40,899 nt of DNA from a virus (taxonomy: Duplodnaviria; Caudoviricetes), in the IMG/VR virus record IMGVR_UViG_3300044701_000880, positions 1-40,899 of that record; one strand, written 5' to 3'. Below are positions 1 to 40,899 of this stretch, piece after piece. The notes under the pieces were generated by a model. That model made no database searches. It saw nothing but the letters and a program-made list of their open reading frames with translations, and was not told where the DNA came from. Made by a program: the position numbers and the translations under genes. Positions within the stretch are counted from its first letter, which is position 1. Each line of letters begins with the position of its first letter.

Positions 1-527
1 CTCAGCTACCTTCCTAGCGATGTCATGGTCTTGACTGAGTAACCAGTCGCCAGTAAAGCTAGGTGCACCCTTAGGTGTTCTTGGATACCAGATGTTTAGC
101 TTATCAAAGGCCTTGCCAAGGTCATCGGCTGACCAAGGTTCTAGCATAAAGCCAGCGGTGTCTCGTAATTCGCCAAGCATCCTTGCTTCGTCTTTTAGAT
201 ACTGATCATTGAGTTGTTCAGCACGGTCAACGTCAACACGGACCCCCTTAAACCGCATGTCAAGCATGATTGGCACTAGGTCTGATTCAAGGGTAAAGAT
301 ATCCCATAGGTCTTCTTGCTTCAAGATCTTTTCTTGGATAGCCCAAATCTTAAGTGGTAAGGCAGCATCAGCCTCGGCGTATGGACCTACAAATCTTGCA
401 GGTAATTTCCATAGACCACTCTTAGGATCAACACCAAAAGCGCTTGCAGCTTGACGCAGCAAGGTCTCATCTTTATCGATGCCAAGATACTTCTTAGCTA
501 ACGCAGACAAGGAATAACTTACTTGGT
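1..527. repeat. Terminal overlap, copy 1 (matches 40373-40899)
   Basis: Direct comparison: 1-126 and 401-527 are identical to the window end, with about 14 substitutions between 127 and 400. Indicates a circular assembly. Confidence 0.97.
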
Positions 528-921
528 TCTCATCAATCAATGGTTCAGCAATTTGAATATCCCAAATCGGACCGTTAACTTGAATGCCTTCAGCGCGTAA
601 CCATTCTAAATCATAGATTAGATTAGCCCCAACTTTCGGAGTTTCTGTCTTAAGGACATCCTCCAAGAATCGAAGTACACTAGCTTTAGGCAGATTATCG
701 CCACCTTCATGCGCAATCGGAAAGTAGCCACAGTAATCCTCAGTCGCGATAGAGACGCCCACAACGTAGCCATCATATCTCACCCCGCCCGGACCGCGCT
801 CCATCAGGAATGGATCTTTTGTCTCGCAGTCGAATGATATGATTTTTGCTGCCGCCAGATTGGGGAATTCCTTTGGGGGAGACCAATCCGATCTCGGCAT
901 AAACATGCTCAATTGGTCCAT
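1..921 (-). CDS. polA: DNA polymerase family A, N-terminal part (3'-5' exonuclease region); continues at the other end of the window
   Basis: Hand translation from ATG at 921: MDQLSMFMPRSDWSPPKEFPNLAAAKIISFDCETKDP... with ExoI-like DxE. In frame with ORF 39425-40882 through the overlap (about 622 aa total). Confidence 0.9.
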   Translation of the reverse strand, partial: MDQLSMFMPRSDWSPPKEFPNLAAAKIISFDCETKDPFLMERGPGGVRYDGYVVGVSIATEDYCGYFPIAHEGGDNLPKASVLRFLEDVLKTETPKVGANLIYDLEWLRAEGIQVNGPIWDIQIAEPLIDENQVSYSLSALAKKYLGIDKDETLLRQAASAFGVDPKSGLWKLPARFVGPYAEADAALPLKIWAIQEKILKQEDLWDIFTLESDLVPIMLDMRFKGVRVDVDRAEQLNDQYLKDEARMLGELRDTAGFMLEPWSADDLGKAFDKLNIWYPRTPKGAPSFTGDWLLSQDHDIARKVAE

Positions 922-1348
922 GATATATCCACTCACCTTTCCATAAATTTTTAGCTTCTAAATTGACGTACTCCTCTAAAAAGACAATACGTTTACAGCC
1001 AGTATTCATCAACAACTTCACACAGGTTACACAGGGACTGACGGTTATATACGCCGTTTGAATCTTACTGGTATCCTTACACTGCAGCAATGCGTTTTGC
1101 TCGGCGTGTATAGCTTCACACTTGTCCAGACCAGTTCCTGGTTCGTAACTCGCGCCAGCACAAGGATGATCGAGACAATGATCAGCCCCACGAGCAACGC
1201 CGTTATAACCAGTAGCAAGTACGTGCCGATTATCGTCCACGAGAATACAGCCAACGCGCCGCCTTCTACACGTCGCACGCAGCGAGACGAGTGCAGCCAT
1301 CGCCAAAAAGTACTCATCACGCTTAGGTCTCCAGTATTCCAGTTCCAT
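773..1348 (-). CDS. dCMP deaminase
   Basis: HAEQNA and SPCVTC zinc motifs, RATCxRRxVGC, TGYNG. ATG at 1348 has a GGGAG RBS (track start 1372 is TTG). Confidence 0.92.
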   Translation of the reverse strand: MELEYWRPKRDEYFLAMAALVSLRATCRRRRVGCILVDDNRHVLATGYNGVARGADHCLDHPCAGASYEPGTGLDKCEAIHAEQNALLQCKDTSKIQTAYITVSPCVTCVKLLMNTGCKRIVFLEEYVNLEAKNLWKGEWIYHGPIEHVYAEIGLVSPKGIPQSGGSKNHIIRLRDKRSIPDGARSGRGEI

Positions 1349-2075
1349 CAGCTTTCTCCCATAGCCATTCAATTAAGTCATCACCATGTTGAAACCATGG
1401 GATCGTTGGTATCTCAAGAATCTCGCATTGACCGCGGACAATTAACTCAGCTAGTGTCCACTGTTCCTCATACAAGTGCATGCTGCCTGCTTGTAAGATT
1501 AACGAACCAAGTTCTGGTTTATGCTTAAGATGACAGATCACGTACCTTGCTAGCATGCTAAAGTTAAAGACATCGTATGGCCAACCGAGCCACAGGTCTG
1601 AACTGCGCATGGTATCAACCACATGCAATAGACCGTCACGGATTAAAAATTGCACACTAACCGTACATGGAATGTCCTTGCTTTTAGCCGGATTAGGGCG
1701 CCAAATCGTAAGGACTGCTTGCCTTGTATCTGGATCATCATTCAAAGCAGCAATGACTGAGTGCATTTGATCGCGGATCATGGGCCCATACGCACCATTG
1801 AAAAAGTAACCATCATCACTAAAATTACTGATGGCTTTACTATAAGGGGCAATCGAGTTAACGCGATTATCGCCACTGAGAATCCATGCAGCTTCGGCTG
1901 CCATAAACTTATAACCTAACTTACGTTCCTTGACCGTTAATACTGGCCATTCCATTGGGATCGAAGTCTGATAACCAATTAGCTCTTTAATACGTTTACC
2001 TCGTGGTGAGGCGATTGTGCCTTGTGTTAAACAAGTTTCAATCGTTTGTAACCATTGACTGTTAGTGGATAGCAT
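1323..2075 (-). CDS. Thymidylate synthase homologue, probable dCMP hydroxymethylase/methylase
   Basis: DIPCT catalytic Cys137, MRSSD, SMHLYE. Asp168 lies at the position of ThyA Asn177. Confidence 0.85.
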   Translation of the reverse strand: MLSTNSQWLQTIETCLTQGTIASPRGKRIKELIGYQTSIPMEWPVLTVKERKLGYKFMAAEAAWILSGDNRVNSIAPYSKAISNFSDDGYFFNGAYGPMIRDQMHSVIAALNDDPDTRQAVLTIWRPNPAKSKDIPCTVSVQFLIRDGLLHVVDTMRSSDLWLGWPYDVFNFSMLARYVICHLKHKPELGSLILQAGSMHLYEEQWTLAELIVRGQCEILEIPTIPWFQHGDDLIEWLWEKADGTGILET

Positions 2076-3063
2076 GACGTAATACCTCTCTCATCTTATC
2101 AACGTGCCCTTCAAATCGACGCATGTATGAGGGGTGTTTGATGTGTTCAAAAATAGTCCAGCCCTGGCTCACTACGTGATCTAGTGATTTTTTACCTGCG
2201 CAAATAACCTTTAAATGATTGTGCTGCCACAAAAGACTATTGACAAGCTCATTCGGTGAGCCATCGGCATGGTAAGCATTGGCCCACATAAACAACTCTT
2301 CGCTGGCAGGAACCCGATGTAAAGCTTCGGACAGGTACAAGCTTGAATGTCCGTAGTCATAGAATGGCCAAGCCATGTTCCTAAACTTAGGGTTGACTTG
2401 ATCACCAACGAATAGATACTTTGCCGTGGCTAAATGACCAAGCATGTTTGGATTATTAGGATCAAGTGCTGGTTGGAACTGAGCAGCACGCCAGCTTTTA
2501 GCTCGCTCAACTGCCCATTCGGTAAACATGCCAAGACGATCACCCCAGGTTTCAATGGTATAGGGTAGATGATCTTGCCGATGGTACAAACCACCGCTGC
2601 GAGTCAGATAGTCAGTGTAGTTCTCGTCATCTTTGTGGTCTTTGTTGCCAAAGAATAGATCACGGTAACGCTTAGCTACGCCAGTTGTGTCGTCGTACAT
2701 CTCATCACGAAGTTCTTTTAATTCGCTAAACTTCTTGTTGTAGTCGACAAGATCAGCTGGCAAACAATAGATGTACATGGCAGCGTGTTTACGCGCAATG
2801 CGATCCATCATGCGTCCCATCATGGGCCATTGACTACCACCACGATATTCAGCGGCATACAGAGCTTCAGAAGGCCACCATCTGTCGATGATCACATCTT
2901 TCTTTTGCCTGATTGCCCACCGTATGGCTGCCGTATGATACAAGAACATCTGGTCTGGCCAGCGATAACTAAGGTGTAGGTACTTAGCATCTAACGTCTT
3001 GGCCATAAATTGACCTAACGTTGTCTTGCCTACCCCATCAGGACCTTCAAGAATAAAGATCAT
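2062..3063 (-). CDS. P-loop nucleotide monophosphate kinase fused to C-terminal uracil-DNA-glycosylase-like domain
   Basis: ILEGPDGVGKTT Walker A and IIDRW (TMK-like). C-terminal LFVGDQ...WANA...VICAGK...HPSY pattern. Confidence 0.75.
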   Translation of the reverse strand: MIFILEGPDGVGKTTLGQFMAKTLDAKYLHLSYRWPDQMFLYHTAAIRWAIRQKKDVIIDRWWPSEALYAAEYRGGSQWPMMGRMMDRIARKHAAMYIYCLPADLVDYNKKFSELKELRDEMYDDTTGVAKRYRDLFFGNKDHKDDENYTDYLTRSGGLYHRQDHLPYTIETWGDRLGMFTEWAVERAKSWRAAQFQPALDPNNPNMLGHLATAKYLFVGDQVNPKFRNMAWPFYDYGHSSLYLSEALHRVPASEELFMWANAYHADGSPNELVNSLLWQHNHLKVICAGKKSLDHVVSQGWTIFEHIKHPSYMRRFEGHVDKMREVLRHAIH

Positions 3064-3425
3064 TGAGCTTCTCCGACGAGGTCACCATGGTAGGGAGGTT
3101 CCCAGCCTTCTGGCTTGATGACGTCGTATTCACCACTACGTTGAGAAGGACCACGCACCTTGGCCATGTTTGCAGCATGGACACGGCGCCAAGCTTCGTC
3201 AAAATCAAAGCCGTGCAAATAAGCAGTGCCCATGGCTACATAGACCAGATCAACAAGTGCATCTAGTTCATCAGCTCGTTTACTGGCTAAGATGTATTCG
3301 TCAGTCTCTTCAATCAGAAAGTTAGTTCTAAAGCTCGCCAGGTCTTGTGGTAACGACCTTGGCGGGCCGTCATAGACAAGACCAAACTTCTCGTGAAAGT
3401 CCTTTATGTCTTGCCATTGACTCAT
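3060..3425 (-). CDS. MazG-like/all-alpha NTP pyrophosphohydrolase (dUTPase/dCTPase-like)
   Basis: FHEKFG, IEETDEY, DALVDLVY, VHAANMAK, KPEGW. ATG 3425 with AAGGAG RBS and ATGA overlap. Confidence 0.85.
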   Translation of the reverse strand: MSQWQDIKDFHEKFGLVYDGPPRSLPQDLASFRTNFLIEETDEYILASKRADELDALVDLVYVAMGTAYLHGFDFDEAWRRVHAANMAKVRGPSQRSGEYDVIKPEGWEPPYHGDLVGEAQ

Positions 3426-4261
3426 ACCATTAACTCCTTCCATTGCTCGCTACTGCCCCAACGACCTTCAACGTCGCGAAGATCAGCAAATTTACGATTG
3501 CCACCTGGATTCCACTTTAGTTGCCATAAGCAATTGCGTGAATATTGTGGATACAAGGGCGCGAAGATGGTAGCAAGGTAGTTGCTATCGTAGTAGTCGC
3601 GCATCGCATCAAAGACCTCCTTGTGGGCAGCTGGTAGTTCGTCTTTGTAATCACGCATCGAGGCAAACGTGCCCCAGTGACCTTCAACACGCCAACCAAT
3701 ATCCTCAAGAAGGGCACCAAATGCAGCATAGGTCATCTCATTGACGTGGTTTGCAGCAGCACCTACATCAGGATCCCAACATGGGGTTGATAAGAACAAC
3801 GTGCCTTCTGGTTCTAACAGGGTGCCAAAGTTAGCCAATAGACGACGACAGTGTTCTGGCTCGATGTGCTCGGCAACCTCAAAACAGACGATCGTATTTG
3901 GTTGCTCCTGAAGTTCTTCAACCTTTAGGATTGCAGCATCACATTCAGATAACAATTGACTAGGTTTCCATGTGCTCTTTGCAAACTGGGCTGGCATCTC
4001 TAACTTAGAGATATCAGCTGCAGCATAAAAAGCAGGTCCTAACCTAGATGAATGCATCAACTTGGCCAACGGCATTTCCTTACCGCAGCCAACGTCTAGA
4101 ATCCTAGCCGTCTTGTAACGACCACCTTGATGTAACCACTTGACGACGTGCGTCCATCTGAGACAATGGGCAATATAATCGCGGTGTAAAAACCCACGAT
4201 CCTCAGCATTGTCAATGCTTAAAAAGGTCTTATCGACCGCCTTACCTCGTTCATTTGCCAT
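3422..4261 (-). CDS. Class I SAM-dependent methyltransferase (small-molecule/nucleotide type)
   Basis: ILDVGCG motif I, CFEVAEHI, LEPEGTLFLSTP. Confidence 0.85.
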   Translation of the reverse strand: MANERGKAVDKTFLSIDNAEDRGFLHRDYIAHCLRWTHVVKWLHQGGRYKTARILDVGCGKEMPLAKLMHSSRLGPAFYAAADISKLEMPAQFAKSTWKPSQLLSECDAAILKVEELQEQPNTIVCFEVAEHIEPEHCRRLLANFGTLLEPEGTLFLSTPCWDPDVGAAANHVNEMTYAAFGALLEDIGWRVEGHWGTFASMRDYKDELPAAHKEVFDAMRDYYDSNYLATIFAPLYPQYSRNCLWQLKWNPGGNRKFADLRDVEGRWGSSEQWKELMV

Positions 4262-4323: not shown

Positions 4324-4551
4324 TTACCTAAGCATCGATTTTATAGCCTCGATGCCACTACTTTTAATTAAACTGCCCTGATAATAGCTCAACAAGCGTT
4401 GTGGCTTCTGACGACTCTTGAGGCGAGCTCCAATAAGCGTCAGCAGTTCTGTCTTGCTAATCTCGCCAGCTTCCTCAATGATCGCCAGAATAGCCCTTGC
4501 TTGCTTTGCCAGTTGTACATCAGGTGTCTGAATAAAGCGGTAAGTAACCAT
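4324..4551 (-). CDS. Small basic protein, possible winged-helix; paralogue of 5793-6047
   Basis: AAAGGAG RBS; shares QAR..L / Q.P.R...YY...LI pattern. Confidence 0.7.
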   Translation of the reverse strand: MVTYRFIQTPDVQLAKQARAILAIIEEAGEISKTELLTLIGARLKSRQKPQRLLSYYQGSLIKSSGIEAIKSMLR

Positions 4552-4567: not shown

Positions 4568-5512
4568 TTAAGCTGCCTGCGCGTATTCGACAGCAAGATC
4601 TAAGGCCTTCCGCTTGAGAGCGGCACGCGGGCCAAACCACGCGGACTGCAAGGAAGCATCGCGGTCACGACCTGCCTTGTGGTCTACGTAATACGTTACA
4701 GCATTTAATGCGGACCACCAAGTACCTTCACTCATCTTAGCACCTGGTTGGGTATGAATGCAATTATACACTTCATCCGCAGTCTTTGCCCACAAGCTCC
4801 GATCTTCGTGCTCGGCAATTAATGCCGGCTGGAAGAGTTGGGTAATGTACTTAGAGACTTGCTTCTCGTCATACGCTACGCGTGCCAGAAGCTCGCTAGT
4901 GACCTTAAAAGCGTCGAGTTGACCAGATGCCAAGCCAAGTGCTTGCGATGCCCTCTGGGCCACATCCTGATCAAAGATCCGAACGTGAGGCATGGTAAAG
5001 CGGTTTGACCGTTGGCCAAGTGCCATGGTGAGCGTATTGTTGCAAACCACACGGATTGGTGTGAACATGATGGTCATGCTCTTGCCCCAGATGTGAGGTT
5101 GACTAAACAGTAAATAACCGTTGACTTCGTCGCCATCAGGCAAACAGAAACCCTTATTGATCGCAGCGAGACCCCATACCTGACGGCCGTCGTCTAACGA
5201 ACCGGCAGTCTCCATCTTCATCGCCCCTGCCTTGACGAACTTGTCAAAGAACGAGAAAACCTCGGCGTTCTGAATGGGAACGTAGTTCTTGCCACAAGGA
5301 CCTAGGATCTTGTTATCAGAATCACGGACAAGCAAGGCCCAATCGTTAGTCTTGAGACCACACTCGGTCACGATCTTACGACGACTGACCGTCCAATCAA
5401 GGTCGGCTGCAATCATCATCTGCTCAGGTGTTAATGAATCACTGACCTTGGTGCCTAGACCATGCCAGGGTACTTCGTTGGCGTATGCCATTGTTTCAAC
5501 CATATGTGCCAT
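4568..5512 (-). CDS. DUF932/DUF945-family phage/plasmid protein
   Basis: PWHGLG, ETAGSL, TPIRVVCNNTL, GTWWSALNAVT motifs; strong RBS. Confidence 0.85.
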   Translation of the reverse strand: MAHMVETMAYANEVPWHGLGTKVSDSLTPEQMMIAADLDWTVSRRKIVTECGLKTNDWALLVRDSDNKILGPCGKNYVPIQNAEVFSFFDKFVKAGAMKMETAGSLDDGRQVWGLAAINKGFCLPDGDEVNGYLLFSQPHIWGKSMTIMFTPIRVVCNNTLTMALGQRSNRFTMPHVRIFDQDVAQRASQALGLASGQLDAFKVTSELLARVAYDEKQVSKYITQLFQPALIAEHEDRSLWAKTADEVYNCIHTQPGAKMSEGTWWSALNAVTYYVDHKAGRDRDASLQSAWFGPRAALKRKALDLAVEYAQAA

Positions 5513-8528: not shown

Positions 8529-9798
8529 TTGGGCTCCAAGGCCTTATCAGTTTCCATTATGGAAATTTTTAGAAGACGGCGGTAAGCGAGCTGTTGCTGT
8601 TTGGCATCGGCGCGCAGGTAAAGACTTGCTGTCAATTAATTGGTGTGCAGTGTCAGCATTGACAAGGCCTGGGTTATACTGGCACTTGTTTCCAACTTAT
8701 AACCAGGGGAGAAAGATCGCTTGGGACGGGATGACCCGTGACGGTAGGAAGTTCATTGACCACTTTCCAAAGGAAACTTGGGAGGCAGTCAACAATACCG
8801 AGATGCGATTAACATTAAAGAATGGCTCGATCTATCAGGTGGTGGGTACCGACAACGTTGACCGATTGGTTGGTGCAAATCCCGTCGGAGTCGTCTTCTC
8901 TGAATACTCCCTCCAAGATCCCCGAGCATGGGATTACATTCGTCCCATCTTGGCTGAAAATGGAGGATGGGCATTATTTATTTATACCGCTCGAGGTCGA
9001 AACCATGGATACGATTTACTCAACATGGCAAGACGAAACGAGAAGTGGTTTCAGCAAACACTGAGTGTTGATGATACCAGGGCCATTAGCCAAGAGGCGG
9101 TAGACGAGGAACGTGAGTCAGGCATGCCTGATGAGATGATCCAGCAAGAGTTTTATTGTAGCTTTGATGCCCCACTAGTAGGTTCTTACTATGGTAACGC
9201 GATGGCTAGGTTACTTGCTGATGGTAAGATTACCGGGGTTCCATATGAGTCACGCCTTGAGGTCCATACATCTTGGGACCTTGGCATGGGTGATTCAACC
9301 TCAATTATCTTCTTCCAGCGCCACGGTGGTGAGATCAGGATCATTGATTACTACGAGAGTAGCGGTGAGGGTTTAGCCCATTACGTTAAGATCTTAAAGG
9401 AAAAAGAATACATCTACGGCGAGCATATTGCACCACATGACATTCAAGTCAGGGAGATGGGCACAGGAAAGAGTCGGTTAGAAGTTGCCCGTGAACTGGG
9501 GATTAGGTTTCGTGTTGCTGCTAACCTTCGGATTGATGATGGTATTGAAGCAGTTCGGACAACCTTACCTAAGTGTTTCTTTGATGAGAAGAAGTGCAGC
9601 CATCTAATTGAAGCCTTGCGCCAGTACCGTAAGGACTTTGACGAGAAGAACAAAGTTTTCCGAGATCGTCCGTTGCACGATTGGACCAGTCACCCAGCGG
9701 ACGCGATGCGTTACCTAGCTGTTGGACTACGCGACCAGTTAAATATGAACGCAAAGAAATTACCGCGGATGGCTGACATGGATTATCAGATCTTATGA
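8503..9798 (+). CDS. terL: Terminase large subunit
   Basis: PRPYQ, HRRAGKD Walker A, VVFSE Walker B, WDLG nuclease motif, HDWTSHPADA. Confidence 0.95.
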   Translation: MAEITVPVDWAPRPYQFPLWKFLEDGGKRAVAVWHRRAGKDLLSINWCAVSALTRPGLYWHLFPTYNQGRKIAWDGMTRDGRKFIDHFPKETWEAVNNTEMRLTLKNGSIYQVVGTDNVDRLVGANPVGVVFSEYSLQDPRAWDYIRPILAENGGWALFIYTARGRNHGYDLLNMARRNEKWFQQTLSVDDTRAISQEAVDEERESGMPDEMIQQEFYCSFDAPLVGSYYGNAMARLLADGKITGVPYESRLEVHTSWDLGMGDSTSIIFFQRHGGEIRIIDYYESSGEGLAHYVKILKEKEYIYGEHIAPHDIQVREMGTGKSRLEVARELGIRFRVAANLRIDDGIEAVRTTLPKCFFDEKKCSHLIEALRQYRKDFDEKNKVFRDRPLHDWTSHPADAMRYLAVGLRDQLNMNAKKLPRMADMDYQIL

Positions 9799-10244
9799 TC
9801 AGACCGTTTACCTTAGACGATCTACCCACCATGGTTGAGCTAGGAAAGATCATGCATGAGGAATCGGTTTACCGTGATCTTGACTTTGATGCGCAAAAGT
9901 TAATTGACCTAGGCCATCACTATATTGCTAACCCCGAAACTTGCTGGTCAGCAGTTGCTGAAGTTGATGGTAAAATCATAGGTATGTACGCCGGATACAT
10001 TACGGAGTACTATTTCGGTAAGGACCTAATTGCACAAGATTTGCTTCTCTTTGTTGATCCTACTAAACGCGGTGGCCTTGCTGCCGTGAAGTTGATTACA
10101 GCATTTGAGGACTGGGCTTTTGCAAAAGGTGTAAAGGAAGTATGTCCTGCGTCGTCGACGATGGTAGCTCCTGAAAGAACTGCCATGTTGTACAACTTGT
10201 TAGGATATACTAACGTCGGTAGTTTATTTAAAAAGAGGAGATGA
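9795..10244 (+). CDS. GNAT-family acetyltransferase
   Basis: MIRPFTLDD, LFVDPTKRGG, AFEDWA, LYNLLGY. Confidence 0.8.
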   Translation: MIRPFTLDDLPTMVELGKIMHEESVYRDLDFDAQKLIDLGHHYIANPETCWSAVAEVDGKIIGMYAGYITEYYFGKDLIAQDLLLFVDPTKRGGLAAVKLITAFEDWAFAKGVKEVCPASSTMVAPERTAMLYNLLGYTNVGSLFKKRR

Positions 10245-15418: not shown

Positions 15419-17433
15419 TGGCTAAGAGTACCCCGATTCAGACTAACTTTACCGGCGGTGAAATTAGTCCGCGGCTGCATGGCCGGGTTGACCTTGCTAA
15501 ATACGGATCAGCGTTAGAGCGCTGTGAAAACTTTATTGTTTTCCCTCACGGGGGTATGACTAAACGACCTGGTACTAGGTTTATTGCTAGTACTAAGGTC
15601 ACAACGGCCGTCAAGTTAATTCCGTTTATCTTCTCAACCACGCAATCATACATTTTAGAATTTGGGAATTTATACGTCCGTTTTTATCGTAATGAAGGCC
15701 AGCTATACAACGGGGGAAGTATCTATGAAATTGCTACACCATATACAACAGCTGATCTTGATGGCCTAGACTTTACGCAGTCTGCGGACATTTTATATTT
15801 AGTTCATAAAAGTTATCCAATTAAACAGTTAAATCGTCTAGGGGCTACAAACTGGACATTAACTGATTTTGCATTTAAAGATGGTCCGTATGATGCTGTT
15901 AATACAACAGCTACTACTGTAAATCCGCAGCATACTACTGGATCAACTACTATCACGGCAAGTACGGGTATTTTTGCTTCAACTGATGTAGGCAGGTGGA
16001 TTAGGATTGGCCATTCAACGGCTGACTGGGGTGCAGCTAAGATTACGGCTTATACCAGTGCCACACAAGTAACTGCCGCGGTAGATGCAGATTTGCCATT
16101 TCACGCAACAAGCGCAACAGCTACATGGCGACTTGGCAGCTGGTCTAATACCACTGGATGGCCGTCAGCCGTGTCATTCTTTCAAGAACGATTATTCTTT
16201 TCAGGATCCACTCAGAAGCCCTCTACCATTTGGGGGAGCAGGTCTGGTGACTTCCTTAGCTTTAGTCCTACAAATGAAAACGGTGAAGTCCTAGATGATT
16301 CTGCATTGAATTTTACATTGTCGACAGATCAGGTTAATGCCATTAGGTGGATCTATGGCGAAAAGCGCTTACAGATTGGTACATCAGATGGTCCATTTAT
16401 TCTATCGTCTGGCCGAAACTTTGAGGCGCTAACACCAACCAATGTGACCGTATCACGTGAAACAACAGATGGAAGTGCCGACGAACGGGTTGTTGGAGCT
16501 AGTAGAACTACCCTATACATTGACCGGTCAAGATTAAAAGTACGTGAACTTGCCTATGACGTAAATGCCGAGGGGTATACTTCACCAGACATGACTCTGT
16601 TAGCCGAGCATATTACCACTGGTTACATTAAGCAGATTGCTTACGCAAGATCACCAGACAATCTAGTTTGGGTATTACTACAAACTGGCGAACTTCGTTG
16701 CTTAACATACGAGCGTGAACAAGAGGTTGTGGCTTGGCATCGACACATCATTGGTGGCACTAATACGTTTGTAGAATCAATTGCAGTTATTCCTAAAAAT
16801 GACGAGTCGTCTGAACTTCTTTATATGGTTGTGCGTCGAACAATTAATGGGGCTACTGTAAAATATGTAGAATACTTAGAACGATCATTTGATACGGCTA
16901 AAGGTGACACCCTTCAACAAGCCCACTTCGTAGATAGCGGGTTGTCTTACTCTGGTACTGCTACTAGTACATTAACTGGATTAAGCCATTTAGAAGGCCA
17001 GGTTGTTCAAGTCTTTGTTAATGGAGCTGTGCATCCTGATCGAACAGTAGCAAGCGGTCAGATTACTTTAGATCGCCCGGCTACAACGGCAGCCGTAGGT
17101 CTTGGCTACGTAGCTAAAGCCCGCACATTAGACCCGGAAGTTCAGACAGAAAACGGACCAAGTCAGGGTAAAATAAGACGTATTGAACGCGTCACCTTTA
17201 GGGTTGTAGATACGTTTAACTTGAAGTTTGGCGTCAGTGAGAGTAATTTAGAGATTATTCCATTTAGGGAGGCAGGTTCAGCCATGGGTAGTGTTGAATT
17301 ATTTAGCGGAGATAAACGGGTATTATTGCAGCATACGCCAACTCGCGAATTTACTTTGACTATTCAATCTGATACTCCGCATCCCGCCACAATCTTAATG
17401 ATTATGTACGCCATGGTGGTATCTGAACGATGA
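15418..17433 (+). CDS. Tail tubular protein B / nozzle (gp12-like)
   Basis: QTNFTGGEISPRL, TQSADIL, GWPSAVSFFQERL, QEVVAWHRH. Confidence 0.9.
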   Translation: MAKSTPIQTNFTGGEISPRLHGRVDLAKYGSALERCENFIVFPHGGMTKRPGTRFIASTKVTTAVKLIPFIFSTTQSYILEFGNLYVRFYRNEGQLYNGGSIYEIATPYTTADLDGLDFTQSADILYLVHKSYPIKQLNRLGATNWTLTDFAFKDGPYDAVNTTATTVNPQHTTGSTTITASTGIFASTDVGRWIRIGHSTADWGAAKITAYTSATQVTAAVDADLPFHATSATATWRLGSWSNTTGWPSAVSFFQERLFFSGSTQKPSTIWGSRSGDFLSFSPTNENGEVLDDSALNFTLSTDQVNAIRWIYGEKRLQIGTSDGPFILSSGRNFEALTPTNVTVSRETTDGSADERVVGASRTTLYIDRSRLKVRELAYDVNAEGYTSPDMTLLAEHITTGYIKQIAYARSPDNLVWVLLQTGELRCLTYEREQEVVAWHRHIIGGTNTFVESIAVIPKNDESSELLYMVVRRTINGATVKYVEYLERSFDTAKGDTLQQAHFVDSGLSYSGTATSTLTGLSHLEGQVVQVFVNGAVHPDRTVASGQITLDRPATTAAVGLGYVAKARTLDPEVQTENGPSQGKIRRIERVTFRVVDTFNLKFGVSESNLEIIPFREAGSAMGSVELFSGDKRVLLQHTPTREFTLTIQSDTPHPATILMIMYAMVVSER

Positions 17434-17876
17434 TTAGAAAAGCCGGCGTCCCTGATGTTGATGCTATCGTAGCAATGGCAGGACCATTTTTAAATTATTC
17501 GCAGTTCACCGATTACACTGAAATTGAACGCGACGATGTAGTGTTCGGAATTTGTAATTTGATTGATAATGGTATTGTCTTTGTAGCAGAAAAAGAAGGC
17601 CAAATTGTTGGGTGTATTTGCGGGATTATCACAAATTTTTGGTTTGCAAGAAATACAAAGGTAGCCGCTGAATTAGGTTGGTGGGTTAATGAGGAACACC
17701 GAGGGTCTACGGCTTCAATTAGGTTATTGCAAGCATTTGAAAACTGGGCTAAAGAACACGGAGTTAAAGCAATTACAATGTCTGATCTTGTTATTAACGG
17801 CAACACTCCAGCAGGTCCAATCTATAAAAAACTTGGGTATGAGCTTGTTGAACGTGCTCATGTAAAGGGAGTTTAA
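17430..17876 (+). CDS. GNAT-family acetyltransferase (second copy)
   Basis: MIRKAGVPD, WWVNEEHRG, AFENWA, IYKKLGY. Confidence 0.8.
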   Translation: MIRKAGVPDVDAIVAMAGPFLNYSQFTDYTEIERDDVVFGICNLIDNGIVFVAEKEGQIVGCICGIITNFWFARNTKVAAELGWWVNEEHRGSTASIRLLQAFENWAKEHGVKAITMSDLVINGNTPAGPIYKKLGYELVERAHVKGV

Positions 17877-18355: not shown

Positions 18356-20641
18356 ATGCCAAGAATTCCAACATATCAAGAAAGTCAAATTAGTGGCCTA
18401 GGTTTAGGTGGTCGTCCTATGTCAGGTCTAGACAGCCGTCAAATTGCGGCAATGGCTGAAACTGCCGGTGGTGGTCTTGTAAAAACTGGCCAAGCAATTA
18501 CGCAACTAGCATCTAATTTTGCAGACGTAGAAGTTCAGCGCCAAAAAGATACTGCAGCAATTGAACATGCTACTATTACTTCTTCCTTTGGCACGGAACT
18601 TACTAAGCGAATTAGTGATCTTCGTGAGACTGACAGCGCAAATACTAAGAAATATTTAGATCCAGACTATGGTGGTACATCACAACCAGATACGCATTTT
18701 AATCAAGTAGATAAAGCTTTTAATGAATTAGTTAATGATCCTAAGTGGAAACATTCTAACCGTTACGCGCAGCAAATGTGGAATCAATATATCGGCCAGG
18801 TAAAGGGGTCGGTTGCAAGAGAAGCTATTCAATTTGAAGCAAATCAACGGGTTGAAGCTCGTCAAATTGGCTTGATGGAAGCTAGAAAATCTGACATTAT
18901 TGCGGTTGGCTCTGATCCAACTAAATTAGACGCCATGATCGCTAAATGGGAAACTTTATACAACACCCTTGATGACCCCAAGACCAAAGAAATTGAAGGG
19001 TACCGTGGGGTTGTTGACAATAAATTTTTAGCAAGAATGCGAGATGCTCGCGGTGATTTTACAATTGCTGCTTATGAAACCATGATTACAAATAGTCCTG
19101 GGGCGGCATATAAATCACTTCAGCAGCTTCAAAAAAATCCAGCCAGAATGGAACAACTTGGTCTAGATCCGAATGAGTTTAATAAATTATTCCGCGCGGC
19201 TAAAAATACGTATGAAGCTGGTAATGTCTTACAGCAGTATAATTTAGAGAAAAATTTTGAATCTCATCTTGCCTTGATTCAAAGCACTGGCACAGGTTTA
19301 CCTCAATTCTCTGGAAAAAATGGCGTAGCGAACGCGGTATCTGGAGTAATAGGTGGTGATCGCGCTGTAGTAATGGCAGATAAAATGCAGCGTCAAGTTA
19401 ATATTGCGCAATCTAGTTGGGATGCCGCATCTAGTTTAAGGTTTTTACCTGTCACCGAAATGATTACTGGCTTTAATAAATTAACACCAACACCAAATGC
19501 TAATGCCGCTGATCAACTTAAGGTTAAAGAAAATGTTGGTCAATTAATAAACGGCTGGATTCAACAACGGGCGCAAGATCCTGGGGCATTTTGGTCGCAG
19601 CATCCCGCTGTACAACAAAGGCAAAGAACTGGCGATATTGCAGGAGCTCGTGACCAGATGCTTGTCTTACAGCGTCAAGCCGGGGTAGAACCATTTAACT
19701 ACGCGGTTTTAAGCCAGCAAGAACGGTCTAGTGAGATTAGTTATCTGCTTAAAGCCCCTCCAAATGAAGTTGCCGGCAGATTACAAAGTTTAAGAACTAG
19801 ATATGGTGGGCAAAACGGTGAATTTAGGGGTCAAGCCGATATTGTTTTTAGGCAGTTAACAACTGGTGAAGGAGCTTTACCTCCTGAGTATATGTTTGCA
19901 GCAAGAGCTTTAGGCACACCAGCTGAAACAAAAATTCTTAATGCATTAAAACTAGACGATAAAACCCTTACTAGTTTAGCGCCAAGCCTTCAAAAAGGAA
20001 TTAGCTATAAGGATATTGAAGGTACTTCCGTGCAAATGGGTGACACATATCTTAAAGCAATTACTGGCGGGTTAAGCAGTCGTCTAGGAACTTTTGAAGC
20101 CGCCTCAAAATTAGTCTCTAAAATGGCAACAGCCGAGTTACTAAGCACAGGTAGCACTAATAGTACTAGCGCAGTAAAACGCGCTTGGCAAGATGTGATG
20201 CAAAGTTTTGACGTCACCGGCGGAACCTACTTTATTCCTAAGGCAAAACCTGGCGAACCTAATACTTACAATATGGCTCAGATCCATGAAAATGCTGCCT
20301 TGATTAAGGCCAATCCAGTATATCTTGCGCAAAAATTTAAGATCGCAGTCCCCGGTTCTATGGATCCAGCGACTGCACAACAACCTGCTTGGATGAGCGA
20401 GAGTTATTTAAAGTCCCTAGCTAAACACGGGTATTGGATTACCAATCAAGATGGCACAGGATTAGATTTAATTATCAATTCAAACGGTGTCCCTGAAAAA
20501 GTACCTACTACCGATGGTGGTACTGTAAGCATTCCATTTTCACAACTAAGTAATAAGCTTCCTGAAGATGTTAGAAAAACGCTTACTACTAAACCAAGTG
20601 GAGTAGGTTTTGGTCGTGGCGGCTTTGGAATCTATAACTAA
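18356..20641 (+). CDS. Internal virion (ejection) protein
   Basis: MPRIPTY start, helical composition, synteny. Confidence 0.7.
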   Translation: MPRIPTYQESQISGLGLGGRPMSGLDSRQIAAMAETAGGGLVKTGQAITQLASNFADVEVQRQKDTAAIEHATITSSFGTELTKRISDLRETDSANTKKYLDPDYGGTSQPDTHFNQVDKAFNELVNDPKWKHSNRYAQQMWNQYIGQVKGSVAREAIQFEANQRVEARQIGLMEARKSDIIAVGSDPTKLDAMIAKWETLYNTLDDPKTKEIEGYRGVVDNKFLARMRDARGDFTIAAYETMITNSPGAAYKSLQQLQKNPARMEQLGLDPNEFNKLFRAAKNTYEAGNVLQQYNLEKNFESHLALIQSTGTGLPQFSGKNGVANAVSGVIGGDRAVVMADKMQRQVNIAQSSWDAASSLRFLPVTEMITGFNKLTPTPNANAADQLKVKENVGQLINGWIQQRAQDPGAFWSQHPAVQQRQRTGDIAGARDQMLVLQRQAGVEPFNYAVLSQQERSSEISYLLKAPPNEVAGRLQSLRTRYGGQNGEFRGQADIVFRQLTTGEGALPPEYMFAARALGTPAETKILNALKLDDKTLTSLAPSLQKGISYKDIEGTSVQMGDTYLKAITGGLSSRLGTFEAASKLVSKMATAELLSTGSTNSTSAVKRAWQDVMQSFDVTGGTYFIPKAKPGEPNTYNMAQIHENAALIKANPVYLAQKFKIAVPGSMDPATAQQPAWMSESYLKSLAKHGYWITNQDGTGLDLIINSNGVPEKVPTTDGGTVSIPFSQLSNKLPEDVRKTLTTKPSGVGFGRGGFGIYN

Positions 20642-23600
20642 TGGCAAAACTTAAAGCTAGGGATCCAAACGTTTCGGCGGAAGATCCACTTTCTCTTAAA
20701 CCATTTACTGGTGAAACCAGTCCTATCAGTTTAAATTTTACTGACGAGGCGCCTTCACGCTGGTTTCAATCATTTGGTTTTGATGGAGTCAGAGCAGACC
20801 GCGCAGAGGTTAGAGGAGCTGCCTGGGATAAAGCAGACTCCGGTCTTAAGTCTATTTTAAATTTAAGTGAGCTTGATAGAGCCGAAGAACTTACAAAATA
20901 TTCTGATGAAGAACTACGATCTTTATATCGTAAACGACATTCAAGCGCTAGAGGCGGCGGAAGTACTGGCGCAAGGCGTCGTCCTACCTTAGAAGAATTT
21001 GGTATTGCCGACCGCCCAGTTTACTTAAGTCCAGATGAAGCAAATCAACAATATGGTATTCCTGGTCACTTAACTTGGGATAAACCTATTAGCAGTCTTG
21101 TGGCATCAATTCAGCACAAACGTAAACTTGATGAAGTTAGATACAGCAATATTGTAGGCCGTGCCCAAGGTTTTGTTGATAACGGCATGGCGCTTGGTAT
21201 TGAAATGGGAGCTTCTTTGTTAGACCCTGTTGGCTTAGCTATTGGTTTTATTCCATTAGTAGGTCAAGCAAGATATGGAAAACTTGCCGAATCTGGTTTT
21301 AAGACAGCATCTAGAATGGCAAGAGGTGCTGAAGCTGGGTTTGTTGGCACATTAGGTGTTGAACCATTTATTTATGCCGATAAGGTACAAAGTAAAGCTG
21401 ACTATGACATGTATGATTCTTTGGCAAATGTGGCATTTGGCACGGTTGCCGGCGCTGGATTGTTTGCAGTAGGTGGCAAGATAGCTGATGGTGTTAGAAG
21501 TCTTCGTAAAGAAAGCCACGTCAAAGCGTTTGATTTATCAATTAAACAATTGGCAGCAGGTAAGAATGTTGAAGTAGGACCAGTTGCTACACATGGTGCC
21601 GGCAACGGAAAAGTTACCGCCATTAACATCGATGACTTTGATACAACCCCAACTTCAATTAATAGCAAGGCTATTGAACCAGCCCCTGAATTAGACCCTG
21701 AACTTAAAAAATTAAGTCCAATTAAAGAATACCCGCCAGCAGCTGACGTAACTAAAAGTCTAGAGTTAATGGATAAGGTTACAACCGGACCTACAAATCG
21801 TATTACTGTGCAGCAAATTAAACAAGCCGTAGATACGCCAGCTCTCAAAGAAGCTATTGATCAAGCAGCTAAGATGAACCTTGGCAATAACATTGCCTTC
21901 TACATTACTACAGCAGATGGAAACGTTGTTGCTGTAAAAGCTGGCAAAGATAAACGTTTAGCCGGGGCTCCAATGTCCTTGATTACTTCGCCTTCGTATG
22001 CGGCTGGCGGAGTAATTGATATGACTAAGGTTACAACACAGTTGCAAGATCTATTGGCTATTCATGGTTTGTCTGGCGATGAGGGTATGGCCATGGCTTA
22101 TAAGGGTTCTTATAAGCTCGACAAAGGCAATATCACGCACATCATTGAAATCAATAAAGTAGCATTTGACCCGCTACAAAATCAGCATAACATTGTCATT
22201 GCGCCATTTGACAATATGAAAGGCATGTTCTCACAAGATCCTGCTGATCAAGTATTTTCAGATTTAAATCCTCGCGGTAAGGAAGGCGTATTAGCCACAG
22301 CGCAAGATTTAAAATCCTTTGTAGCGGATGATACCCCATTAAAGTATAAATCCTTTGGCGGGTTTGACGAAACTTTAGATGTTACACAGTTAAAGAGTGT
22401 TGGGCCACAACAAGGTACTAATCCTGGTGGTTTACATAAAGACCAAGTTACTGGTGGGGATCTTTACGTAAAATACCAAGATCCTAATCGTACGATGAAT
22501 GAATGGATTGCAGCGACACTATATCGCTGGTTTAACGTACCCATGCCAAAAACCACAATTGTTACAGATCAAGGTAAAACAATTGGTGTAGCGTCAGAAC
22601 TAATTCATCAAGGCAAACCCCTGTCTCCAGACGAGTTTGTCAAATTAGATCCAGAAGTACAGCGCGCATTTTTACGTCATTTTATGGTTGACGCATTCCT
22701 AGGTAATTGGGATGTGGTTGGAAACGCACCCAACTGGAATATGCTGTTGATGCCTAGTGGCGAAGTAATTAGGATTGATCCGGGTGGCGCTTTACTTTAT
22801 CGCGCCCAAGGATTGCCTAAAGGTAAGGATTTTGGACCCACGGTTAAAGAGTTTCAAACGTTGCAAAGTTCGTCAATGAACCCGGCAGCCGCTAAAGTAT
22901 TTAAATTAGCAAAAAGTGTTGATGACATTGATGATGCGGTCTACCGTATCTTGCGTGTTCCTGAATCGGAATTTATTAAGTTAGTTGATACAGCAAAGCA
23001 GCATGGTCTGGGTGAAGCCGAAGCGAAAGTTTTACTTGAAACTTTGTTAGCAAGACGTTTAGACTTACAAAATACATACGGTGACGCAGCTAAGAAAGCC
23101 GCCAAGGATCAGAATAAGATTCAATTTACTAGCCAAAAAGAAGCTCTTGATTTTTTAAATACTACTAAAGAAGCGACGTTAAAGCACATTAACAACGATG
23201 AAAAGAGCGTCATTAAACAGTATACTGGTTCTTACTATCAAAACCTAAATAAAGCCCTTTGGGACAAGGCAACTAATGGTACTGCCATTCCAGGTAATCT
23301 ACAGCAAGACATTGATCTGCTTGATTCAGCCATTGCAAAAGCTCCTAAGTTAAGTGAAGCAATTGAGGTATGGCGCGGCAACATTGGTCACAATGCGTTT
23401 AATAGCTTATTAGCAGATGCTGGATTATCTACATTTGGTAAGGGAGCAAAAATTAATGGTGAGGATGCTTATAACATTCTTAAGGCGCTTGAAGGTAAAG
23501 TAATTGAATTACCTGGTTTTACTAGTACATCTCTTAGCTATAACTTTGCTAAAAACTGGCATGGAAGTTACCAGGGTATGAGTTCAATCGCGCAAATTAT

Positions 23601-24114
23601 TGTGCCGCAAGGACAACAAGCCTTGATGGTAGGACCACATCTTGGACTTCAGCAAGAATATGAGGTGCTGTTACCTAGATCTGCTGTATATAGATTAGTC
23701 CAAGTATTACCACCAAAAGGTACTGGGGGTGATCCTACTTTGTTATTACAAGTTGTTGATAAGAATTCGCACTTACCCTTTGAAAAACCAAGCGGGGACA
23801 TGTTAAAAACGGCTAAGCAATGGAAAGAAAGCGGCAGTAATGCAGCTGATACCACGCCATTAGCAAATGAACCAGTTGATGCTGTTGGTGATACTTTAAA
23901 AGGCGGAATGGATGACCTTGCTAAAGTGACACAAGAACTAGAGGATTTACAAACTTCGCTTGATTCACAGATGGCAAACTTAGATCCTGCTTCAATGAAA
24001 GTTTTAGAAAAAGAACTTAAAGCAATTAATGAACAAGCAGATATGGCAGCTGCTGATGCACAAAATCTGTATAAGGCAGCACAAGCTGCCGCTGTTTGTA
24101 TCAATAAGGGATAA
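20641..24114 (+). CDS. Internal virion protein with kinase-like and ADP-ribosyltransferase domains
   Basis: GTNPGG..YVK..NE..GNWD..N..RIDPG kinase-like motifs; VWRG / FTSTS / QEYEVLLPR ART motifs. Confidence 0.8.
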   Translation: MAKLKARDPNVSAEDPLSLKPFTGETSPISLNFTDEAPSRWFQSFGFDGVRADRAEVRGAAWDKADSGLKSILNLSELDRAEELTKYSDEELRSLYRKRHSSARGGGSTGARRRPTLEEFGIADRPVYLSPDEANQQYGIPGHLTWDKPISSLVASIQHKRKLDEVRYSNIVGRAQGFVDNGMALGIEMGASLLDPVGLAIGFIPLVGQARYGKLAESGFKTASRMARGAEAGFVGTLGVEPFIYADKVQSKADYDMYDSLANVAFGTVAGAGLFAVGGKIADGVRSLRKESHVKAFDLSIKQLAAGKNVEVGPVATHGAGNGKVTAINIDDFDTTPTSINSKAIEPAPELDPELKKLSPIKEYPPAADVTKSLELMDKVTTGPTNRITVQQIKQAVDTPALKEAIDQAAKMNLGNNIAFYITTADGNVVAVKAGKDKRLAGAPMSLITSPSYAAGGVIDMTKVTTQLQDLLAIHGLSGDEGMAMAYKGSYKLDKGNITHIIEINKVAFDPLQNQHNIVIAPFDNMKGMFSQDPADQVFSDLNPRGKEGVLATAQDLKSFVADDTPLKYKSFGGFDETLDVTQLKSVGPQQGTNPGGLHKDQVTGGDLYVKYQDPNRTMNEWIAATLYRWFNVPMPKTTIVTDQGKTIGVASELIHQGKPLSPDEFVKLDPEVQRAFLRHFMVDAFLGNWDVVGNAPNWNMLLMPSGEVIRIDPGGALLYRAQGLPKGKDFGPTVKEFQTLQSSSMNPAAAKVFKLAKSVDDIDDAVYRILRVPESEFIKLVDTAKQHGLGEAEAKVLLETLLARRLDLQNTYGDAAKKAAKDQNKIQFTSQKEALDFLNTTKEATLKHINNDEKSVIKQYTGSYYQNLNKALWDKATNGTAIPGNLQQDIDLLDSAIAKAPKLSEAIEVWRGNIGHNAFNSLLADAGLSTFGKGAKINGEDAYNILKALEGKVIELPGFTSTSLSYNFAKNWHGSYQGMSSIAQIIVPQGQQALMVGPHLGLQQEYEVLLPRSAVYRLVQVLPPKGTGGDPTLLLQVVDKNSHLPFEKPSGDMLKTAKQWKESGSNAADTTPLANEPVDAVGDTLKGGMDDLAKVTQELEDLQTSLDSQMANLDPASMKVLEKELKAINEQADMAAADAQNLYKAAQAAAVCINKG

Positions 24115-39424: not shown

Positions 39425-40899
39425 TTATCTAATCTCACCCCAATTAGGTCCTATTTCTAAATCGACCTTTAATGGAACATTTATTTTAACACAGTTTTCC
39501 ATAATCTCTTGAATCTTTTTGCCTTCATTACTGTCAGTGATACTGAAGTCTAGTTCATCATGGACTTGCAAGTGAGCAACATAACCTTCTTTATATAAGT
39601 CAACCATTGCCTTCTTAGTCATATCAGCAGCACCACCTTGAATGAGCGCATTCAATGACTTATGGACCATGGACCGTCTCAAGGGTCTACCAGCCCATAC
39701 ACGTTCAGCATCTTCCCTGGTCAATGGCTGTTCACGGTTTGGCCAAGTGTTTTGTGCATCAGCCGGTTCCCAAAGATTAAAGTGACGCTTACGACCTAGC
39801 AATGTCTTAATAAATCCCTTGTCAGCTACTGATTGGCTGCACTTGTGAGCAAGTTGCCTTACAAACGGAACACGTTGATGATACTGTTCAAACAAAGGTC
39901 TTGCCTCTTCATTACTTAAACCTAGTTGGGTAGCAAGCTTATACACACCCATGCCATAAAACATGCCTAAGTTAATCACCTTGGCTTGCTTACGTTTAAT
40001 GCCTGCCATATCCGCAACCATTTGATGGAAGTCGGTGTCGCCAGTGTATTGCTGCACAGCTTCATCAGCACCTCGTAAACCTAACAAGTCCGCGTAATGC
40101 ACAAGGACCCGGGGCTCTTGTTGGCTGTAGTCGCAGACTGCCCATTGTTTGCCTTCATCTGGCAAGAATAAACCGCGGATCAATGGACCCCAATGTTCGT
40201 CGCGTGCAGGTACTTGCTGCAAGTTAGGTGTGCTGCTGCTAAACCTACCAGACCTTGTACCGTCAGCGTCCTTACGAAGGGCGTGGAATTGACAATGGAT
40301 CCTGCCTGATACATTCATCTTCAGTACCATGCCTTCAATAAAGTCACGACGCATCTTATTGATCTTGCGGTACTCAGCTACCTTCCTAGCGATGTCATGG
40401 TCTTGACTGAGTAACCAGTCGCCAGTAAAGCTAGGTGCACCCTTAGGTGTTCTTGGATACCAGATGTTTAGCTTATCAAAGGCCTTGCCAAGGTCATCAG
40501 CTGACCAAGGTTCTAACATAAACCCAGCGGTGTCTCGTAATTCGCCAAGCATCCTTGCTTCGTCTTTTAGATACTGATCATTGAGTTGTTCAGCACGATC
40601 AACGTCGACACGGACCCCTTTAAACCGCATGTCAAGCATAATTGGCACTAGGTCTGATTCAAGGGTAAAGATCTCCCATAGATCTTCTTGCTTTAAGATC
40701 TTCTCTTGGATTGCCCAAATCTTAAGTGGCAAGGCAGCATCAGCCTCGGCGTATGGACCTACAAATCTTGCGGGTAATTTCCATAGACCACTCTTAGGAT
40801 CAACACCAAAAGCGCTTGCAGCTTGACGCAGCAAGGTCTCATCTTTATCGATGCCAAGATACTTCTTAGCTAACGCAGACAAGGAATAACTTACTTGGT
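39425..40899 (-). CDS. polA: DNA polymerase family A, polymerase domain (continues from 921..1)
   Basis: SGRFSSSTPNLQQ, motif A DYSQQEPR, motif B AKVINLGMFYG, motif C QVHDEL. Confidence 0.95.
   Translation of the reverse strand, partial: QVSYSLSALAKKYLGIDKDETLLRQAASAFGVDPKSGLWKLPARFVGPYAEADAALPLKIWAIQEKILKQEDLWEIFTLESDLVPIMLDMRFKGVRVDVDRAEQLNDQYLKDEARMLGELRDTAGFMLEPWSADDLGKAFDKLNIWYPRTPKGAPSFTGDWLLSQDHDIARKVAEYRKINKMRRDFIEGMVLKMNVSGRIHCQFHALRKDADGTRSGRFSSSTPNLQQVPARDEHWGPLIRGLFLPDEGKQWAVCDYSQQEPRVLVHYADLLGLRGADEAVQQYTGDTDFHQMVADMAGIKRKQAKVINLGMFYGMGVYKLATQLGLSNEEARPLFEQYHQRVPFVRQLAHKCSQSVADKGFIKTLLGRKRHFNLWEPADAQNTWPNREQPLTREDAERVWAGRPLRRSMVHKSLNALIQGGAADMTKKAMVDLYKEGYVAHLQVHDELDFSITDSNEGKKIQEIMENCVKINVPLKVDLEIGPNWGEIR
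40373..40899. repeat. Terminal overlap, copy 2 (matches 1-527)
   Basis: Direct comparison. Confidence 0.97.

Follow-up and report, generated by a model that had tools for sequence, protein, structure and literature searches.

Among the known pathways closest to the locus described here is the one by which phage T4 makes 5-hydroxymethylcytosine (hmC) DNA, with gp42, the gp56 dCTPase, the gp1 dNMP kinase, the cd deaminase and the alpha- and beta-glucosyltransferases. We analysed a viral DNA stretch of 40,899 nucleotides (hereafter, the window; IMG/VR virus record IMGVR_UViG_3300044701_000880) that carries an operon of five overlapping minus-strand genes, encoding an S-adenosylmethionine (SAM)-dependent methyltransferase, a pyrophosphatase, a kinase, a thymidylate-synthase (TS) homologue and a deoxycytidine monophosphate (dCMP) deaminase, which run into DNA polymerase A (Pol A). 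Four of them are predicted functional counterparts of the T4 enzymes. The TS homologue has Asp143, Asp169 and Asp177 as in T4, and full cytosine replacement before replication is predicted here as well. However, its clade is MilA-like and shares about 25% identity with the gp42-like one, the virus is a podovirus with Pol A, and a SAM methyltransferase is present instead of the T4 glucosyltransferases. In agreement with the preliminary description of this DNA, no glycosyltransferase was found among 47 ORFs (PHROGs), among 48 window ORFs (Pfam) or in six-frame searches with T4 alpha- and beta-glucosyltransferase models, although an unfamiliar family could escape these searches.

Three other pathways resemble the operon in part. 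In the 5cmdC carbamoyltransferase system (Yang et al. 2021, PMC8670742), TS, PRA-PH and dCMP deaminase are neighbours and the tailoring enzyme takes the same slot, but it belongs to another enzyme family and its donor is carbamoyl phosphate, whereas here it is SAM. The Xp12 5-methylcytosine (5mC) pathway also has an Asp177 TS beside a deaminase and replaces cytosine at the nucleotide level; it differs in having Asn143 and an adjacent dihydrofolate reductase (DHFR) gene, and in lacking a methyltransferase of this family. The 5-hydroxy-dCMP/arabinosyl-hydroxycytosine pathway of RB69 and DLP3 (PMC13326640) shares the Asp177 and acidic-143 TS homologue, but requires D169N, whereas the window has Asp169 and no arabinose genes.

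We consider it very likely that hmC replaces cytosine throughout this genome, and probable that the methyltransferase acts on the modified cytosine. For O-methylation of hmC to 5-methoxymethylcytosine, the chances are about even. Active-site residues, gene co-occurrence and the restriction resistance of a cultured relative, phage AXL3, support the earlier proposal that cytosine is replaced by way of a T4-like dCMP hydroxymethylase and that a SAM enzyme belongs to this route. Regarding its further suggestion of a SAM-methylated pyrimidine, the O-methylated hmC option is the best supported one, and an N4/C5 doubly modified base, its other example, has a lower probability; that the methyltransferase modifies the base is what we infer.

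The best PDB match of the TS homologue was MilA (E 2e-25), a CMP hydroxymethylase, which ranked above the thymidylate synthases. Lee et al. 2026 (PMC13326640) give a code of three residues, numbered as in ThyA, that associates Asp177 with dCMP, an acidic residue 143 with hydroxymethylation and D169N with 5-hydroxylation; they describe the position-143 rule as a correlation. Residues D134, C137, D160 and D168 of the homologue correspond to ThyA 143, 146, 169 and 177: Asp is present at 143, 169 and 177, and the catalytic Cys146 is kept, as is the catalytic Glu58 (E61). The D169N mark of 5-hydroxy-dCMP synthases is absent, with Asp at D160. A ribonucleotide substrate, suggested by the top match to MilA, was rejected in view of R118 and S158, which align with the deoxyribose determinants Arg126 and Ser167; MilA carries Lys133 and Ala176 at these positions (PMC5175136). 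Judged by its residues, the predicted product is 5hm-dCMP.

The preliminary description had also allowed for genome-wide substitution of T and for a route from dCMP through 5m-dCMP to dTMP that bypasses dUMP. Both are disfavoured, because Asp177 points to dCMP and Asp143 to hydroxymethylation, whereas the Xp12 5m-dCMP synthase, our control, combines Asp177 with Asn143 and DHFR. These Xp12-type marks (non-acidic 143, linked DHFR) do not occur here: DHFR was not found in this genome, and Xp12 was the only positive among the five records searched. A 5-methyl-dCMP-forming TS homologue of the Xp12 kind (giving 5mC DNA, and dTTP by way of the deaminase), or one in the service of ordinary dTMP supply, is very improbable; in either case the methyltransferase would be an incidental neighbour. 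Such a reading can draw on the correlative nature of the position-143 rule and on the deaminase, PRA-PH and Pol A genes that also adjoin 5m-dCMP synthases (bioRxiv 2024.12.05.627091), but Asp143 and Asp177 were present in every readable TS of our alignment (206 of 208 rows, the other two being gapped).

The cultured relatives bear on the same question. Genes 27-31 of the Stenotrophomonas phage AXL3 and those of the Pseudoxanthomonas phage PW916 match the operon in gene content and order, and in the TS signature. Many IMG/VR contigs also have these five genes in this order, so the layout is not due to chance. Both phages are siphoviruses, whereas the window is a podovirus, and their proteins are 30-49% identical to those of the window. 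AXL3 DNA was cut by two of 37 enzymes, both with A/T-only sites, and resisted all 35 enzymes with G/C in their sites; its authors took the genes as a dTMP pathway (PMC7504290). Against this dTMP interpretation, AXL3 carries a separate ThyX. Moreover, KpnI cuts Xp12 5mC DNA fully (Flodman et al. 2020, PMC7653180) and left AXL3 uncut at 13 sites, so AXL3 DNA is not plain 5mC. XmnI cuts the hmC DNA of T4gt partly and glucosylated T4 DNA not at all (PMC7653180). Its isoschizomer PdmI has 21 sites in AXL3 and did not cut, one hint that the AXL3 base is more than plain hmC. XbaI was dropped as an informative enzyme since AXL3 has a single site.

A neighbourhood search, proposed earlier as a check, found the methyltransferase and the TS homologue together. 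The methyltransferase-queried set had 150 loci, of which one truncated locus was dropped, leaving 98 distinct sequences. TS was present in the fetched DNA of 84 of them, and all 14 loci without it have a short flank. When at least 3 kb was available on both sides, TS was found at every locus (57/57), and the 56 readable ones all have D143/C146/D169/D177. The scan of the AXL3-type subfamily (44 loci, two truncated ones dropped, 34 distinct, 30 well flanked) retrieved such a TS in 29/30, and the exception carries one elsewhere in its genome. In the opposite direction, 63 loci retrieved with the TS query had 4 kb upstream, and 57 of them carried the methyltransferase. Ten records without a nearby copy were searched over their whole length, with a positive control, and none contained it; of these ten, four are complete or at least 95% complete.

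The TS partners form four clades that are 22-31% identical, one of which we take to be T4 gp42-like by its motifs. In a quick tree of 107 methyltransferases, three minor groups form separate clades (support 100), which needs three partner switches, each time with the same TS signature. Such a distribution is that of an hmC-bound tailoring enzyme which a genome may have or lack, rather than of a gene hitch-hiking on another one. At locus L133, a carbamoyltransferase fills the methyltransferase slot before the pyrophosphatase, kinase, TS and deaminase. This carbamoyltransferase family modifies the hydroxyl of hmC, 5hm-dCTP included (PMC8670742). No relatives of the L133 enzyme were found among 124 methyltransferase loci.

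These patterns also speak to the idea that the DNA contains plain 5hmC and that the methyltransferase is a support enzyme, acting on a by-product (e.g., deaminated 5hm-dUMP), a ribonucleotide, an RNA end as Hen1 does, or a pathway protein. Complete relatives that run the core without the methyltransferase are compatible with it; plain 5hmC already accounts for nearly all of the AXL3 resistance, the deaminase and the uracil-DNA glycosylase (UDG)-fold domain of the kinase show that by-products need handling, and the substrate might be RNA or a ribose, given the likeness to Hen1. Still, we regard it as unlikely: the methyltransferase stands where L133 has a proven tailoring enzyme of hmC, it has kept to the hmC signature in four TS clades, and AXL3 resists PdmI.

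Concerning the methyltransferase itself, its family comprised 1,298 clusters among 2,256 candidates and is viral, with 366 IMG/VR matches, whereas 185,579 prokaryote genomes gave four loci, each on a contig of a metagenome-assembled genome. Its neighbours in the atlas are mostly viral clusters, and a tblastn search found it in five of 50,697 phage records, AXL3 and PW916 among them. The structural model (pLDDT 91) has a class I fold. The top fold matches were ChlM (Z 18.8, rmsd 2.7, 188 aligned), CmoM (Z 18.5, rmsd 3.7, 216 aligned) and plant Hen1 (Z 16.6, rmsd 2.8, 187 aligned), all oxygen methylators. Foldseek against the PDB and viral models returned generic class I methyltransferases and one uncharacterised phage protein with 47% identity, none of which pointed to a substrate.

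The 127 aligned family sequences all have E128, E131, H132 and H172, which AXL3 keeps too. Alignment by hhalign to eight bacterial Hen1 domains paired EVAEH with EVIEH, STP with TTP and NHVNE with DHRFE (probability 94%, E 9e-8). In Hen1, four ligands hold a metal that activates the hydroxyl for 2'-O-methylation (PMC10781085), and a Hen1-type metal site favours a hydroxyl acceptor. The enzyme shares with Hen1 the class I fold, the ExxEH plus distal His metal site and the (S/T)TP motif, but it is not a member of that family: TIGR04074 scored 18 bits vs. a cut-off of 340, with comparable weak matches in 11 of 14 control genomes. It also differs in lacking a Pnkp partner and an RNA-binding domain, and in the extra conserved N- and C-terminal motifs of a family tied to 5hm-dCMP synthases. 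Its isoelectric point is 5.7 (family median 6.5); a nucleotide substrate fits better than DNA because the protein is acidic and its gene lies inside a nucleotide-pool operon. No PF00145 match was found in the genome, so a C5-cytosine DNA methyltransferase was not recognised, and Cys161 of the methyltransferase varies in the family (Asn in several members), unlike the invariant catalytic Pro-Cys of those enzymes.

Several points weigh against O-methylation of hmC. N-methyltransferases appear at Z 16-16.7 in the same fold ranking, 2-3 Z below the top, and for this reason the ranking cannot settle the substrate. The ExxEH motif also occurs in coclaurine N-methyltransferase, so that the motif alone is non-specific, and Hen1 chelates a vicinal diol, which hmC does not have. 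The AXL3 comparison crosses studies with differing enzyme sources and conditions, its methyltransferase is only 30% identical to that of the window, and the case for more than hmC comes from PdmI as a single enzyme, while the rest of the panel cannot separate hmC from a capped form. The co-occurrence counts are not independent events because the loci share ancestry, and the methyltransferase tree is a quick version with a midpoint root.

Fusions complicate the picture further. Five long family members (P0123, P0124, P0126-P0128) are fused to a C5-DNA-methyltransferase-like domain with a mostly intact PPC motif, and a gene of this type is adjacent at five loci that encode a 5hm-dCMP synthase; such a partner may mop up unmodified cytosine or perform chemistry on hmC. 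Two distant members (P0121, P0122) are fused to a 335-aa domain with a faint glycosyltransferase hint (one of 14 members, E 7e-4). This domain gave no PDB match and that one faint Pfam hint, and it stands alone at L162 (1167-2174), upstream of the pyrophosphatase, kinase, TS, deaminase and Pol A genes. A glycosyltransferase-like fusion may suit sugar methylation. Taken together, the fusions tie the methyltransferase family to cytosine modification, yet permit other substrates. Neither fusion partner was found in this genome.

Another SAM chemistry on the same hmC pathway has to be weighed: N4-methyl-5hmC, a carboxymethyl or aminocarboxypropyl group donated by SAM or a derivative, or sugar methylation in glycosylating relatives. 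Co-occurrence and the AXL3 evidence fit it equally, the near N-methyltransferases and the possible glycosyltransferase fusions suit it, and phages are described to apply carboxy-SAM to DNA cytosine (PMC12783734). On the other hand, the metal site points to a hydroxyl acceptor. The family consensus has no DPPY/NPPY-type motif, which is the motif of amino-methyltransferases. Besides, neither a glycosyltransferase nor a CmoA-like family was recognised among the 77 neighbour-family representatives scanned (drawn from 153), and the window itself, as said, yielded no glycosyltransferase. We consider this alternative rather doubtful, at somewhat above one chance in five.

Returning to O-methylated hmC, the genes, residues and linkage are observed, and we infer every reaction of the scheme that follows, the action of the methyltransferase on the base included. 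The TS homologue would convert dCMP and methylene-tetrahydrofolate to 5hm-dCMP, as its residues suggest. The candidate for destroying dCTP is the PRA-PH/MazG family protein, a role proposed from its family and by analogy with T4, and the deaminase would turn spare dCMP into dUMP for dTMP synthesis by the host. The kinase would phosphorylate the modified monophosphate onward, and Pol A would incorporate the modified nucleotide. In the methyltransferase, a Hen1-type divalent-metal site would activate the 5-CH2OH group to give 5-methoxymethylcytosine, with the free nucleotide as a likelier substrate than DNA. The UDG-fold tail is an optional part of the kinase, with a possible role in clearing uracil or deaminated modified cytosine. 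The methyl cap would block type II enzymes and hmC-dependent nucleases, at a lower cost than a sugar.

The two domains of the kinase were distinguished in its model (pLDDT 95): residues about 1-190 have a YorR/thymidylate-kinase fold (Foldseek to YorR, E 4e-6), and residues about 205-333 match the fold of family-4 UDG (Foldseek E 7e-4), with HPS kept and motif A divergent. The UDG-fold tail is absent in several relatives.

The hmC core is of a known kind, and the tailoring enzyme and the predicted base were not found in print. In the portions covered, including PMC12783734, PMC13229309 and bioRxiv 2024.12.05.627091, the literature gave no description of this methyltransferase or of methoxymethylcytosine in DNA. 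In its broad form, our proposal is that 5-methoxymethylcytosine is a natural base that takes the place of cytosine in a large and widespread phage group of water and soil, with at least 1,298 protein clusters and AXL3 included, and that a Hen1-like O-methyltransferase has moved between at least four unrelated 5hm-dCMP-synthase lineages; we would give this an evenly balanced chance. 5-Methoxymethyl-dC has been made synthetically, as a drug analogue. If the proposal is true, phage DNA would gain a new base, and hmC a third kind of cap besides sugars and carbamoyl; the proposal would also account for the unexplained restriction resistance of AXL3, predict escape from hmC-dependent nucleases, and provide a SAM enzyme marking 5hmC, of use for labelling and sequencing. 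If the core alone is right, this is an ordinary hmC phage.

At the genome level, bases 1-527 are repeated at 40373-40899 with 14 mismatches (substitutions). Because of this repeat, the window represents one complete phage genome with a unit of about 40,372 bp, and the end repeat is probably an assembly overlap between two strain variants. For the same reason, Pol A runs off base 1 and resumes at 40372-39425. The assignment to a 40-kb podovirus, already made in the preliminary description, was upheld by head-tail connector, capsid and nozzle genes together with Pam3-like replication genes in the PHROG and Pfam scans. The five overlapping genes were likewise confirmed as ORFs, with minor start corrections for two genes: the likely start codon of the deaminase is the ATG at 1348 rather than the TTG at 1372, and Pol A begins at about 921, so that it overlaps the deaminase tail by about 149 nt (773-921, minus strand) in another frame. 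The length of this tail varies among relatives (proteins of 147-202 aa). The coordinates are collected in Table 1.

Table 1. Coordinates of the operon genes and Pol A in the window, and of related loci that combine the methyltransferase with a C5-DNA-methyltransferase-like gene or domain
Feature	Position	Strand	Support and reading
Class I SAM-dependent methyltransferase	3422..4261	-	279 aa; Pfam Methyltransf_23 E 6.5e-13; predicted hmC O-methyltransferase, virus-specific family
All-alpha PRA-PH/MazG-type nucleotide pyrophosphohydrolase	3060..3425 (alternative start 3443)	-	Pfam PRA-PH E 2.3e-12; PHROG 671; predicted dCTPase, putative substrate
NMP kinase + UDG-fold domain fusion	2062..3063	-	PHROG 761 (thymidylate kinase) E 1.7e-13; Foldseek
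Thymidylate-synthase homologue	1323..2075	-	E 1.5e-22; predicted 5hm-dCMP synthase
Zn-dependent dCMP deaminase	773..1348	-	Pfam E 4e-22; predicted dUMP feed to host thymidylate synthase
DNA polymerase A, N-terminal part with 3'-5' exonuclease	1..921	-	Continues via end repeat
DNA polymerase A, C-terminal part	39425..40899	-	40373-40899 repeats 1-527
Methyltransferase/C5-DNA-methyltransferase-like loci	L285:4768-6687, L286:4669-6678; L227:8867-9901, L275, L276, L279, L292

Most sequencing runs in which the operon occurs carry a freshwater metagenome label. In a read layering of four runs, freshwater DNA runs span the operon and RNA-library contigs match pieces of it, which we do not read as transcription. 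A promoter and terminator scan gave counts at chance level. Restriction-site avoidance was also considered: palindromes were slightly depleted (mean observed/expected 0.98 for 4-mers and 0.94 for 6-mers), and without a control set this was not used as evidence.

Some variant loci deserve mention in their own right. The cultured T7-like Pelagibacter phages HTVC119P and HTVC200P (L004, L005) have the kinase and an Asp143/Asp169/Asp177 TS, without methyltransferase, pyrophosphatase or deaminase, and a related uvMED phage (L247) has all four core genes; on these signatures, hmC is predicted for SAR11 phages. At L159 (2763-6010), a pyridoxal phosphate-dependent (PALP) enzyme and two unknown genes lie upstream of the kinase, TS and deaminase, in the usual position of the methyltransferase, and are possibly another hmC tailoring set. 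In marine T4-like contigs (L045-L047, L229), the methyltransferase lies between a gp42-like TS and the deaminase, with UDP-glucose dehydrogenase, epimerase, cupins and cytidylyltransferase as neighbours, and L229 additionally has ThyX and a TauD dioxygenase.

Finally, a DUF932/TIGR03299 gene (window 4568-5512, minus strand) and a 75-aa basic ORF (4324-4551, minus strand) lie directly upstream of the methyltransferase, and DUF932 is present in 64 of 132 clustered loci. Elsewhere on the plus strand, the window encodes a 1157-aa internal virion protein with an Alt-like ADP-ribosyltransferase domain (20641-24114; Pfam E 7e-27) and, within the virion gene block, two GNAT acetyltransferases (9795-10244 and 17430-17876).

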